This document shows, one piece after another, positions 5,041-25,957 of a stretch of 64,000 nucleotides of DNA (the first letter of the stretch is position 1; each line of letters starts with the position of its first letter). The notes under the pieces were generated by a model. The model was given only the letters and a program-made list of their open reading frames with translations. It was not told where the DNA came from and did no database searches. A program made the translations under genes and the position numbers. Source of the stretch: Naegleria gruberi (lineage: Eukaryota); the NCBI GenBank assembly GCA_000004985.1, contig GG738896.1; one strand, 5' to 3'.

Positions 5041-6008
5041 TTTTCATTTATAAATTATTTCAAATTTATTTAATTACCACCTCTTAATCTCAAAACAAGA
5101 TGAAGAGTTGATTCCTTTTGAATATTATAATCAGATAATGTTCTTCCATCTTCTAATTGTTTACCAGCAAAAATCAATCTTTGTTGATCTGGTGGAATAC
5201 CTTCCTTATCTTGAATCTTTGATTTAACATTTTCAATTGTATCATTGGACTCGACTTCCAATGTAATTGTCTTTCCTGTTAAAGTTTTGACGAAAATTTG
5301 CATACCACCTCTTAATCTCAAAACTAAATGCAAAGTTGATTCTTTTTGAATGTTATAATCAGATAATGTTCTTCCATCTTCCAATTGTTTACCAGCAAAG
5401 ATAAGTCTTTGTTGATCTGGTGGAATACCTTCCTTGTCTTGAATTTTAGACTTGACATTTTCAATAGTGTCATTTGATTCAACTTCCAAAGTGATAGTCT
5501 TACCAGTCAAAGTTTTGACAAAGATTTGCATACCACCTCTCAATCTGAGGACCAAGTGAAGGGTTGATTCCTTTTGAATATTATAATCAGATAATGTTCT
5601 TCCATCTTCTAATTGTTTACCAGCAAAAATTAAACGTTGTTGATCTGGTGGGATTCCTTCCTTATCTTGAATCTTAGACTTGACATTTTCAATAGTATCA
5701 TTGGATTCGACTTCCAAAGTGATAGTCTTTCCAGTTAATGTTTTAACGAAAATTTGCATTGTGTTATAATTATTATTAGTTGTTTTGATTTGTTTTTTTT
5801 GTATTGATGAAGAAAATTAATGTTTTTAAAGGTTTTAAAGGGATGATGATATTTTATTTTTAGATTCAAGTTCGGAATTAAATTTTTGTTCCAAGAAACA
5901 AATCATCAAGTTCACCTTCTTTATTCCGTCTTTCCATTCATTACAAACTCTTGTAACCTAGATATCTAATTTCTTTCCAACTTGAATTCAATCTGATTTT
6001 GAAGGTAA
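5041..6008. repeat. Inverted segmental duplicate, copy A: polyubiquitin gene plus ~250 bp upstream and ~28 bp downstream; partner at 24985-25957
   Basis: The reverse complement of 5760-6008 aligns nearly base-for-base with 24985-25239, with a few substitutions and one small indel. The coding sequences also correspond. Confidence 0.85.
5070..5759 (-). CDS. Polyubiquitin, three head-to-tail ubiquitin repeats plus one terminal Asn
   Basis: Three exact 76-aa ubiquitin units ([76 protein letters not shown]) followed by a single extra N before the TAA stop. Confidence 0.97.
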
Positions 6009-7906
6009 AAAATCTAAGGAATATTGGAAGTATTACATGTGATTTTCTTATTATTATGTTATTAAACATCAAAACCTTTCTTTTGCAGTATGCAAAAAAT
6101 GAAGGAACACTAGGTGAAAAACCAATGATTCGGAGTTTGTTGATTTTCAACATGGTTTCACATCATCAAATAATGAAACCAACACATCATCATCTGGACA
6201 TCATCTAAGTAATAGTATTTGTGGAATTTTTAATTATTGGATTATTATCATTAAATTGGAAATGTTTTTTCAAGTTGAAAGTTTTATGAAATGGATTACC
6301 ATCATAAAGCATACCAACCATCCATATGGTGCCATTCATCATCAAAATATAATAGTAATGGTTGTGGAAATACATCTTGTAATAGTTAATAGATTCAATT
6401 TTTATAAATAAATATAATTTTTATTATATATAATATATATATTATATATAAAATCATCATCACTGGTCGATCTAATGGGAAAGATGGAAAACCAGCAATC
6501 TATCATTGTTCGGAATGATGAATAATAGGTTATGCAAATTTCTCCAGTGACTTTGTACCAAGAAATCATAGTATTAGGTTCATGTCAAATTTCACAATAT
6601 GTGCATGTGCCGTAGCTCAACATGTACTTCACCAACTTGGAAAATTTCTTCGAATAGTATTGTTCAAAATGACCTCCAACAACATTGTCATTATCGAATT
6701 TTTGATTTGATTGGTGGTTATGGAGATGAGAAAATTTCAAAATTTCCTTCATCAATTATTGGCTTGATTTCTCAAATTAAATCAACCAATTATTTACAAC
6801 AACACTATCATAGTATTAACAATAAATATTGTTAATAGTTTTTCTTCAATTTTTTTGAAATTTGCCTTAATTAAGATTTCTAAAATTTTATTAAGAATTG
6901 TTTCATTCAATTTTTATCCCACAAGCAATTATACAATGAACTGTAGATATATTGAATATAATAATTCATTCATTGAAATTTGCAATTCTAATCATGCAGA
7001 AACAGTTCTTAATTAACAAGTAGATCTACTGTTTCCCATGCATGATCTTGTTATTGAGTATGTACAGGAAAGTTCTAAACGAAACATTGGATGAAACTAA
7101 GGAATCAACAAAGTTTTTAAATTTTCCGTAATCTTTCTCTTCACGTTATCTAAAAAGAAGAAGGAGTTAGTCCAACTTCTTCGCTGGCATGATATGCCGC
7201 TATTCATTGATTGGTTTCTTGTTAAATTCATTGTAAACTAAACTAATGTTAGACAATGTCCCAAACACAAAACAATCAAGAAATCAAATGACAGTAAACT
7301 TCTTGTGGGCACTCAACTTACCTTCTTGGTACTGTTTTAATATGCCACCAAATAAATCCACATACATAAACTCACCATTTAATCGCTTTCGAATAATTAT
7401 TTGTTGCCAATGTTGGTTTATTGCATGTTGCATCTCTCGAAAATTTACTGAAACAAACGATTAATTGATTTATGGCAGTGTCCACTACTACCAAAAGACA
7501 AAACGCAGTTTTTGCTGATTGTTGACTGCTTGCTTTCTAATAATGCCGTATGAGCAAAACGATACCAAATGTGAAACTACTCCTTTCGAATAATTGCCTT
7601 CTCAAAGGTAACGTTTGTCATCAATCCTCATTTAAACCTCAATGGTAAGGTCCACCAAGCTTTTAAATGACTTATTTCTGACAAGTAGTGCGATACCTCA
7701 TGAAGCAACGTTTCGCTTTTTGTTACCCAAACATGAATTTAACAAAGGTTGTTGAGGGAGCGAAATGTTGTTTCGACCAGTTTCTTGTAAGTTTCGTATA
7801 TTTGTTTTTGCTTCAAATGTACCTCTCAGCAAGCGAAAACGCAAATTGTTGAAGTAAAAAACAAAACAATTCACAATCCACACTCTCTTCAAAGGAGACG
7901 AAACTT

Positions 7907-24736: not shown

Positions 24737-24984
24737 TTTTTTCTTGTTGTGTCATAAAGAATGGTGAACAAAACCAATTTAACCCATACAAACAGTTGAC
24801 AGTTATGGACAAATATGGATTATCTTAATTGTCAGCCACATTGGCTTAACGAAATCTCATTGAAAAGTTACTATCTCTTGGTCTTCTTCTACATCAACAA
24901 CCAAGTGTTTCTGTAGTACTTCCTTGTGCAAATAACTGTAACAAGACATATCAATAATAAATTAATTCCCTTTGATTGTGATTT

Positions 24985-25957
24985 TTACCTTCAAAATCAA
25001 ATTGAATTCAAGTTGGAAAGAAATTAGACATCTAGGTTACAAGAGTTACAGAATTGTATGAATGGAAAGAAGGAATAAAGAAGGTGAACTTGGTGATTTG
25101 TTTCTAGGAACAAAAATTTAATTCCGAACTTGAATCTAAAAATAAAACATCATCATCCCTTTAAAACCTGTAAAAACATTAATTTTCTTCATCAATACAA
25201 AAAAAACAAATCAAAACAACTAATAATAATTATAACACAATGCAAATTTTCGTTAAAACATTAACTGGTAAGACAATTACATTGGAAGTTGAATCAAACG
25301 ACACTATTGAAAATGTCAAATCAAAGATTCAAGACAAGGAAGGTATCCCACCAGATCAACAAAGACTCATCTTTGCTGGTAAACAATTGGAAGATGGAAG
25401 AACTCTCTCAGACTATAACATTCAAAAGGAATCAACTTTGCATTTGGTTTTGAGATTGAGAGGTGGTATGCAAATTTTCGTCAAAACTTTAACAGGAAAA
25501 CAATCACATTGGAAGTTGAATCCAATGATACAATTGAAAATGTCAAGTCTAAAATTCAAGATAAGGAAGGTATCCCACCAGATCAACAAAGACTTATTTT
25601 TGCTGGTAAACAATTAGAAGATGGAAGAACTCTTATCTGATTACAATATTCAAAAGGAATCAACTTTGCACTTGGTTTTGAGATTAAGAGGTGGTATGCA
25701 AATTTTCGTCAAAACTTTAACAGGAAAGACAATTACATTGGAAGTCGAGTCCAATGATACAATTGAAAATGTTAAATCAAAGATTCAAGATAAGGAAGGT
25801 ATTCCACCAGATCAACAAAGACTTATCTTTGCTGGTAAACAATTGGAAGATGGAAGAACTCTCTCAGACTATAATATTCAAAAGGAATCAACTTTGCATT
25901 TGGTTTTAAGATTGAGAGGTGGTAATTAAATAAATTTGAAATAATTTAAACTATTCA
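24985..25957. repeat. Inverted segmental duplicate, copy B (polyubiquitin locus), partner of 5041-6008
   Basis: See copy A. The upstream 255 bp and 3' ~28 bp match copy A in reverse complement. Confidence 0.85.
25240..25929 (+). pseudogene. Polyubiquitin copy 2 (3 repeats + N) with a -1 and a +1 frameshift inside the middle repeat; either a pseudogene or assembly errors
   Basis: Repeats 1 and 3 translate perfectly. The middle repeat reads ggaaaacaatcac where copy A has ggtaagactatcac, i.e. one base shorter (~25495), and gaactcttatctgattacaat where copy A has gaacattatctgattataac, i.e. one base longer (~25635). This puts about 47 codons out of frame with a stop at 25617. Confidence 0.5.

Follow-up and report, generated by a model that had tools for sequence, protein, structure and literature searches.

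Organization of the two polyubiquitin genes

Two polyubiquitin genes lie in opposite orientations in the window, as we call the whole 64-kb stretch of Naegleria gruberi DNA analyzed here. Positions 5051-6011 (arm A, minus strand) and 24982-25948 (arm B, plus strand) are reverse complements of each other with ~94% identity over ~965 nt, and each arm comprises ~253 nt of upstream sequence, a gene encoding three ubiquitins and a terminal Asn, and 19 nt past the stop codon. The arms were delineated by inverted-repeat pairing (pairs I1, I2, and I12) and by alignments; TRF reports a period of 228 nt repeated 3.0 times in both, and in a self-comparison of the window this pair is the only repeat of ~1 kb. 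A preliminary description of the locus proposed that an entire polyubiquitin gene, upstream region included, had been duplicated in inverted orientation, and the arm pairing and the alignments bear this out. The inverted layout given there stands, but the bounds are now those listed above, and the shared 3' flank, formerly put at ~28 nt, is reduced to the 19 nt of identity past the stop codon.

The coding region of copy A (5070-5759, minus strand) is intact, as had been stated for one of the two genes. It translates without a break into three 76-aa ubiquitins, Asn, and stop, with unit A1 at 5532-5759, A2 at 5304-5531, and A3 at 5076-5303, followed by the Asn cap codon (5073-5075) and the stop codon TAA (5070-5072). 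The non-coding region upstream of it (5760-6011, minus strand), which is common to copy B, presumably contains the promoter and 5' UTR, and reading of the shared 3' flank (5051-5069, minus strand) reveals an AATAAA overlapping the stop codon that may act as a poly(A) signal. The same 229-aa protein occurs in N. fowleri, with PF00240 on record for it, and its units, read directly, are canonical ubiquitins with the conserved Lys residues and the LRLRGG end. A polyubiquitin gene is recognized by at least two spacer-less 76-codon units in one ORF and an extra residue before the stop codon. Copy A contains such units in a single ORF; copy B contains them in its DNA, with the ORF interrupted in the sequence as it stands. 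The RGG-N-stop ending is common to both copies.

In copy B, the upstream non-coding region (24982-25239, plus strand, aligned to that of copy A) is followed by a coding region (25240-25929, plus strand) that matches ubiquitin at every codon after two indels are corrected. It consists of units B1 (25240-25467), B2 (25468-25695), and B3 (25696-25923), the Asn codon (25924-25926), and the stop codon (25927-25929). Both indels are located in the middle unit, near 25500 and 25631, where a -1/+1 pair had been reported. The first is the loss of a G at 25497-25500, where GGAAAGACA reads GGAAAACA. The second, at 25630-25632, is an insertion of one nucleotide that restores the ubiquitin frame, AGAAC[A]TTATCT reading AGAAC[TC]TTATCT (ACTCTTATC as written, with ACNTTATCT as the in-frame counterpart). 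Their spacing, previously given as 140 nt, measures 131-134 nt. In the shifted frame a premature TAA occurs at 25615-25617, so that the plus-strand translation runs through unit 1 and 11 aa of unit 2 before the frameshift, and the ORF as written encodes one ubiquitin and a 49-aa tail (125 aa in total). An exact look-up of this 125-aa product returned no match.

The spacer and the extent of the duplication

The arms bracket a spacer of 18,970 nt (6012-24981, unstranded), in accordance with the ~19 kb estimated before. Analyses of ORFs, Pfam domains, and tRNAs revealed nine long ORFs, close to the roughly ten genes counted previously, as well as a tRNA-Gly gene and a weaker tRNA match. The encoded proteins include a GATA zinc-finger protein (7907-9433), a 76-aa ubiquitin-like protein, a DUF4116 protein, two NHL-repeat proteins, and a 2OG-Fe(II) oxygenase; the further ORFs are of 452 aa, 710 aa, and 589 aa (Cys-rich, 22967-24736). 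Pfam matches in the interval ORFs are to GATA, DUF4116, NHL/EGF, and 2OG-Fe(II) oxygenase; three ORFs have no match. An exact look-up of the DUF4116 protein found no match and that of the 76-aa ubiquitin-like protein a single 515-bp metagenome contig, while the best match in a homologue search with the 2OG oxygenase had 64% identity, and no synteny was observed on the contigs of its two best matches. Metagenome scans found neither relatives of the CAP-Gly/LRR/ubiquitin-like gene adjoining copy B nor a 33-mer from the shared promoter.

A size of ~21 kb with inverted termini of ~1 kb resembles Polinton/Maverick-like mobile elements, of which the arms could be the terminal inverted repeats with captured ubiquitin genes. 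We give this explanation a negligible chance. Pfam detects no mobile-element domain in the interval ORFs, whether integrase, transposase, DNA polymerase B, packaging ATPase, or capsid; the arms are complete cellular genes, the G+C content is uniform with the surroundings, and the outer ends show no target-site duplication.

An LRR gene (3852-4997) lies outside arm A, and the CAP-Gly/LRR/ubiquitin-like gene (26255-28120) outside arm B. The genes flanking the two arms show no mirror-image paralogy, and the duplication is limited to ~965 nt. The scaffold is a draft with gaps of estimated size, and arrays of 228-nt tandem units pose difficulties for assembly, so that a single locus, or its two alleles, might appear twice in the scaffold or have been wrongly joined via the repeat. 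The stretch from 5 to 26 kb is free of N gaps, those of the window being located elsewhere. Each arm continues without gaps into unique sequence to its left and right, none of the flanking genes is duplicated, and the arms differ at ~6% of positions, among them 66 coding sites and three indels in the flank. An assembly artefact of this kind is therefore very improbable.

Divergence, selection, and gene conversion

The upstream flanks of the two copies differ by 7 substitutions in 253 aligned nt (97% identity) and by three indels of 7, 1, and 1 nt; with gaps counted, identity falls to ~94%. Between the coding regions there are 66 substitutions in 689 nt (90.4% identity), all 66 of them synonymous, as are all 48 of the 48 variable sites among the six units. 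Re-framed copy B encodes the same protein as copy A, without a single non-synonymous change in 228 codons, and the private substitutions of B2 number only two, both synonymous. Copy B can be told from copy A by synonymous variants of its own, for example a C at site 177 of unit 2. The contrast drawn earlier between a conserved flank and many synonymous coding differences thus holds as an observation, but it does not reflect simple divergence after duplication, since the identity is mosaic.

The most conspicuous element of this mosaic is a 147-nt tract of copy A (5178-5324, minus strand) that is 100% identical to positions 25675-25821 of copy B (plus strand) and spans the end of unit 2 and the first 126 nt of unit 3. 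None of 100,000 permutations reached its length (P < 1e-5). The tract covers 29 consecutive variable sites, and permutation of the variable sites only gave 0 of 200,000 (P < 5e-6). Outside it, coding identity is about 85-90%. A3 and B3 are identical over their first 126 nt, whereas the 3' half of B3 resembles B1. Such mosaic identity indicates gene conversion and shuffling of units within and between the loci, and the 147-nt tract is read as a conversion tract. Consistent with this, units differ from one another at 15-31 of 228 nt within the window versus 32-46 nt from the units of N. fowleri. Identity tracts of excessive length between paralogues are thus accompanied by a greater similarity of repeats within the genome than between species. 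To judge from these alignments, the patchy identity of the two copies is classic concerted evolution of polyubiquitin genes, which is ordinary for the family.

Concerted evolution and gene conversion of ubiquitin repeats were reportedly described by Sharp and Li in 1987, Tan et al. in 1993, and Keeling and Doolittle in 1995. More recently, they have been documented by Dalhuisen et al. 2023 (PMC10457151). The Naegleria genes resemble the documented cases in their mosaic tracts shared between loci, in the synonymous nature of all differences, and in units that are closer within than between species. They differ in that the partners are two inverted polyubiquitin loci, in that the shared tract reaches into non-coding upstream sequence, and in that homogenization is weak, with the units still 15-31 nt apart.

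Nature of the indels in copy B

A genuine decaying pseudogene would be one explanation of copy B, which, as a redundant gene with two independent 1-nt indels, would be heading to loss. The disabled frame, with its indels and premature stop codon, does stand in the given sequence; other genes inspected in the window look intact, so that the consensus is not generally poor, and young duplicates often die. Relaxed constraint, in contrast, is not observed. By the usual ratio of indels to substitutions, neutral decay that produced two indels should also have produced many replacements, but none is found in the re-framed codons, the private substitutions of B2 are silent, and the promoter retains 97% identity. 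Selection cannot account for the exact -1/+1 compensation, as the stop codon precedes the +1 site. Furthermore, unit 1 is intact and would still deliver ubiquitin. Decay is thus a serious possibility that we nevertheless tend to doubt, and the earlier proposal that copy B is dying after duplication fits these data poorly. The lack of non-synonymous changes after re-framing indicates that copy B is not an old pseudogene and, together with the conserved promoter, that any inactivation must be very recent. The purifying selection acting on copy A apparently acts on copy B too, or did so until very recently.

The other proposal made for copy B, a simple collapse of repeats, is not supported for B2, as the segment between the indels differs at at least 9 sites from each of the five other units. 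Nor is there any positive sign that B2 is a chimera of other units: the number of switches needed to build a unit from the others is 11 for B2, 10 for A1, 11 for A2, and 11 for B1, which does not set B2 apart. An in-frame intron from GTAAGA in B1 to ACAG in B3, by which the frameshift would be skipped, was considered and rejected. Intact copy A contains the same GGT-AAG codon pair, and the intron would be 456 nt long, compared with a 44-nt intron seen in the window, and would lack a pyrimidine tract.

A consensus error in copy B arising from mixed reads or alleles is possible. When the rest of the window was searched for ORF pairs suggestive of a frameshift, no obvious frameshifts were seen in neighboring genes: a canonical GTAAGT...TAG intron connects the ORFs 55938-57401 and 57404-58303, and the other pairs look like separate genes. 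The intact neighbors argue against a generally error-rich consensus. We lean slightly toward errors of the draft consensus at the spot that is hardest to assemble, and a very recent genuine lesion has nearly an even chance.

If the lesion is genuine, copy B would yield one cleavable ubiquitin followed by a 49-aa junk tail. Even then a normal ubiquitin could be releasable, since Gly75-Gly76 is retained and followed by Met. Ubiquitin pseudogenes and human UBB+1 offer a comparison. UBB+1, which arises at the RNA level, loses Gly76 and can be neither cleaved nor conjugated. Copy B is similar in that a polyubiquitin frameshift gives one ubiquitin with an aberrant C-terminal tail, and differs from UBB+1 in that Gly75-Gly76 is kept and in that a real lesion would lie at the DNA level.

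Comparison with known polyubiquitin genes

Spacer-less 76-codon units, one extra residue, and conserved ubiquitin ending in RLRGG are common to the Naegleria genes, yeast UBI4, and human UBB and UBC; the extra C-terminal residue of yeast UBI4 is also Asn. Unlike these genes, those of Naegleria have only three units and occupy two inverted loci 19 kb apart. Heat-shock elements are typical of the UBI4 and UBC promoters, though not strictly defining. In contrast, no canonical heat-shock element (nTTCnnGAAnnTTCn or nGAAnnTTCnnGAAn, with at most one mismatch) was found in the shared promoter at 5760-6011 or 24982-25239, and counts across the window equal chance expectation. Inducibility by stress, as in yeast UBI4, is thus unsupported by the sequence. 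The general architecture of such genes, an uninterrupted head-to-tail array of ubiquitin units with a C-terminal extra, has been described previously (PMC10457151).

The closest comparison is with N. fowleri, to which Pescadillo of the window genome is 82% identical (78% to N. lovaniensis). An exact look-up of the copy A protein matched only N. fowleri and one ENA contig identical to N. fowleri. The polyubiquitin gene of N. fowleri (GCA_008403515.1, VFQX01000072.1, about 293.8-294.5 kb) has the same product of three units and Asn, but it lies in another gene neighborhood without flank similarity, as one copy within +/-10 kb, and its units differ from those of the window to the extent given above. 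Its upstream region shows no similarity to that of copy A, the 143 identities in 256 positions being at the level of a forced global alignment. As the upstream flanks of copies A and B are nearly identical to each other and cannot be aligned to that of N. fowleri, the duplication exceeds what coding constraint would preserve. No account of polyubiquitin loci in Naegleria was found in a literature search.

Origin and evolution of the inverted pair

We consider it probable that the locus arose by inverted duplication, followed by gene conversion and by selection that acted on copy B until recently, with the indels representing either an error or a very recent lesion. In this scenario, a complete polyubiquitin transcription unit, with ~250 nt of promoter and 5' UTR, three 76-codon ubiquitins, an Asn cap codon, a stop codon, and AATAAA, would have given rise to an inverted second copy within the lineage leading to this Naegleria species. 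Each gene would encode a tri-ubiquitin precursor; deubiquitinases cut precursors of the UBI4/UBB/UBC type to free ubiquitin and take off the C-terminal Asn. After the duplication, unequal exchange and gene conversion, at each locus and from one locus to the other, would have shuffled and partly homogenized the six 228-nt units. Such exchange among units would explain why the flank and the 147-nt tract are nearly or fully identical, while in other coding stretches about a quarter of third codon positions differ, all of them synonymously.

Inverted low-copy repeats can either mediate inversions, by non-allelic homologous recombination (NAHR), or result from them. The second possibility would make the inverted duplication the by-product of an inversion, with a staggered double break at the ancestral gene, a break 19 kb away, and fill-in, as described for Drosophila inversions. 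The position of two inverted copies exactly at the ends of the interval and the short, sharply bounded duplication would be expected from this process, and neither arm has gene neighbors in common with the N. fowleri locus, which points to rearrangement around these genes. The duplicated block, in contrast, corresponds neatly to one entire transcription unit, promoter and AATAAA included, an outcome not expected of randomly placed nicks, and we regard this origin as unlikely.

As to inversions mediated by the arms, the two ~1 kb inverted copies bound a single-copy interval, as in other inversion-linked repeats, and the long identical tract required at both ends of an invertible segment is available in the perfect 147 nt, although the overall identity of the arms is only 94%. 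The arms are long and similar enough that non-allelic recombination between them could plausibly invert the 19-kb interval. That the pair works as a reversible 19-kb switch, or that the frameshifted copy B is an expressed gene giving ubiquitin and a new 49-aa peptide, seems far-fetched. Such a switch would flip the genes for the GATA factor, the divergent ubiquitin-like protein, and the NHL and DUF4116 proteins.

Implications

The inverted polyubiquitin pair is an ordinary finding, a new instance of known behavior. It offers a heterolobosean example of gene conversion between polyubiquitin loci, with a conserved tract extending into the promoter, and has little importance beyond annotation. 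For annotation, copy B needs to be checked before it is labeled either a pseudogene or a 125-aa protein. The 19-kb interval could differ in orientation between Naegleria strains. Finally, expression vectors for other amoebae make use of ubiquitin promoters, an approach also attempted in N. fowleri (PMC13315211), and the shared upstream block of ~250 nt is a compact candidate promoter that could serve in expression vectors for Naegleria.

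Anatomy of the duplicated polyubiquitin locus

At the ~1-kb scale, the repeat finder detected a single repeat in the 64-kb window: 5051-6011 and 24982-25948 match each other as a set of inverted pairs, and these two arms have a mean identity of 94% across ~965 nt of pairwise alignment. On the minus strand of arm A, a coding sequence (copy A, 5070-5759) specifies three perfect copies of the 76-aa ubiquitin, then a single Asn and the stop codon; it shows all structural features of a polyubiquitin gene of the UBI4/UBB/UBC type. In the plus-strand coding sequence of arm B (copy B, 25240-25929), unit 1 and 11 residues of unit 2 are translated before the frame is lost; the shifted frame contains a TAA at 25615-25617, and the ubiquitin frame is then regained for the remaining part of unit 2 and the whole of unit 3, followed by Asn and stop. 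Repeat finding, alignment and translation thus bear out the preliminary description of an inverted ~1-kb duplication with one intact copy and one -1/+1 copy, apart from small details of coordinates and distance: the indels lie 131-134 nt apart in the global alignment, not 140.

Judging by its sequence, each arm is an entire polyubiquitin transcription unit, made up of ~253 nt of upstream sequence, the coding sequence and 19 nt past the stop, with an AATAAA in this shared 3' segment overlapping the stop codon. A motif search of the shared promoter found no canonical heat-shock element. Over 253 aligned nt, the upstream flanks of A and B are separated by 7 substitutions (97% identity; Jukes-Cantor distance 0.028) and three small indels; similarity of the coding regions could reflect constraint on ubiquitin, but that of the upstream flanks could not. 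On either side of the duplicated block the similarity ends sharply, and no paralogy was found between the genes flanking arm A and those flanking arm B, indicating that the duplication is sharply limited. No scaffold gaps occur between 5 and 26 kb.

Comparison with Naegleria fowleri

The 229-aa 3xUb+Asn protein of N. fowleri is exactly that of copy A. However, none of the neighbors of the N. fowleri polyubiquitin gene is present in the window, and its upstream region does not align with that of the arms. The gene directly downstream of polyubiquitin in N. fowleri (L001) encodes a 681-aa protein starting with a ubiquitin-like domain, as does the corresponding 609-aa gene of a metagenome copy of the locus (L002); these domains (L001 12071-12331 and L002 3318-3578) are about 54-57% identical to ubiquitin, and no counterpart lies beside either arm. 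Eukaryotes are known to have multiple polyubiquitin loci, conversion between loci and frameshifted copies; a literature search found no published description of these Naegleria loci.

Mosaic divergence and gene conversion

The coding sequences of A and B differ at 66 of 689 sites, corresponding to 25% of third positions. All differences are synonymous; after re-framing, the protein of copy B is that of copy A. The divergence is distributed unevenly. An identical run of 147 nt at coding positions 436-582 (A 5178-5324, B 25675-25821) covers 29 successive sites of variation among the units, and was matched in none of 100,000 permutations of third positions and none of 200,000 restricted to variable sites. 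In a table of 48 variable sites comparing the units of both copies (A1-A3 and B1-B3), A3 equals B3 up to site 126, beyond which they differ at 15 sites and B3 resembles B1. The first 29 nt, adjoining the conserved flank, are common to A1 and B1. Within the window, units differ from each other by 15-31 nt, as against 32-46 nt when they are compared with the units of N. fowleri. Units of A and B compared position by position are not orthologous. This is known polyubiquitin behavior (PMC10457151): units undergo unequal exchange and loci convert one another, while strong purifying selection acts on the protein. It accounts for a near-identical non-coding flank next to a more diverged coding region.

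The interval between the arms

The signal of gene conversion shows that the two arms have interacted. Given their inverted orientation, ~965-nt length and stretches of perfect identity (147 nt and about 70-80 nt), it is mechanistically plausible that recombination between them could flip the 18,970-nt spacer (6012-24981). Possibly the inversion came first, its ends acquiring the inverted duplication through staggered breaks. A mobile element was rejected: the interval has no transposon or virus-type Pfam domains, its composition is uniform and no target-site duplication is visible.

The interval also contains a stand-alone gene (9926-10156, minus) for a 76-aa ubiquitin-like protein with 50% identity to ubiquitin, in which Lys11 and Lys63 are replaced. 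It ends in WRGG and an immediate stop, leaving no tail to process; ubiquitins are its nearest solved structures, and the identical protein is also encoded by an ENA metagenome contig of 515 bp (L003). The gene is flanked by tRNA-Gly(GCC) (9594-9666, plus) and a weaker tRNA match (10261-10323, minus; 37.9 bits) that ARAGORN does not call. A 2OG-Fe(II) oxygenase (PF13640; 18687-19919, minus) has its best database relatives among metagenomic proteins (at most 64% identity); proteins from oomycetes, algae and bacteria come next (about 35-40%), and the named matches include no orthologue from N. fowleri or N. lovaniensis. Between this gene and a 710-aa ORF lies an intergenic tandem repeat (20484-20594) with 3.6 copies of the 31-nt unit GGCTCGACTTGGAAATTTTTTTGTCTGACCC at 88% match.

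Other features of the window

The window has a G+C content of 33% and long ORFs; canonical introns are represented by at least one of 44 nt (GTAAGT...TAG). Its genes are eukaryotic (GATA factor, DUF4116, NHL/EGF, LRR, CAP-Gly/LRR/Ubl, kinase, mitochondrial carrier, Pescadillo, BCAS2 and glutaredoxin); Pescadillo is 82% identical to that of N. fowleri and 78% to that of N. lovaniensis, the next named match being Acrasis kona (41%), which places the window in a Naegleria species distinct from both. Through the intron (57358-57401, GTAAGT...TTTTTAG), ORFs 55938-57401 and 57404-58303 are united in a single LRR-like gene; the intron offers a local sample of the form introns take in this genome. N runs at 47823-48127 (305 nt) and 53125-53911 (787 nt) are scaffold gaps of estimated size, showing that the window is part of a draft scaffold, and the second run gives rise to artefactual ORFs across 53.0-54.0 kb. 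Along with the 33% G+C, such gaps suggest a draft of the Sanger era, such as that of N. gruberi.

5S rRNA is encoded by three dispersed genes (34077-34195, plus; 49735-49853, plus; 52552-52670, minus), which share 96-98% identity, flanks of about 15-35 nt included; they are placed singly among protein-coding genes, two of them close to scaffold gaps. DUF4116 is a locally expanded family, with three repeat proteins in 64 kb (10446-12341, minus; 40066-43062, plus; 50768-52225, minus), one of them a fusion with protein kinase and Sel1/TPR repeats. A 708-aa ORF without Pfam match (36024-38150, plus), built of 33-nt repeats rich in Gln/Glu/Lys and a ~95-nt Gly/Lys-rich block that is duplicated, accounts for an AT-skew spike of 0.34.

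Frameshifts in copy B

In the global alignment, copy B (plus strand) lacks a G from GGAAAGACA near 25500, and near 25631 AGAAC[A]TTATCT has become AGAAC[TC]TTATCT. The preliminary description regarded this copy as either dying or a repeat-collapse artefact. Long-standing decay is argued against by the lack of non-synonymous changes in 228 codons, by the presence of only two private substitutions in B2, both synonymous, and by 97% promoter conservation; nor can selection have favored the -1/+1 compensation, since the shifted frame stops 14 nt ahead of the +1 site. Simple collapse agrees poorly with the sequence between the indels, where B2 differs from each of the five other units at 9 or more sites, and with a mosaicism of B2 that does not exceed that of A1, A2 or B1.

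An assembly-related origin of another kind, an error in the consensus, is the reading towards which we lean slightly. The scaffold is a draft, the indels fall in the most repetitive coding stretch of the window, and the +1 site reads exactly as would a column-wise merge of the in-frame haplotypes ACATTATCT and ACTCTCTCA of other units. Such a merge could come from mixed reads or alleles, or from a misaligned heteroduplex that was then repaired. A genuine change of very recent date has not quite an even chance; consistent with a real lesion, the remaining inspected genes are intact and the single suspicious ORF pair is accounted for by an intron.

Should the indels prove real, the product of 125 aa would consist of the first ubiquitin with its Gly-Gly, then Met. 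From the known processing of ubiquitin precursors, deubiquitinases should still free one normal ubiquitin from it, since the Gly-Gly-Met junction is kept, and copy B would be weakened, not dead.
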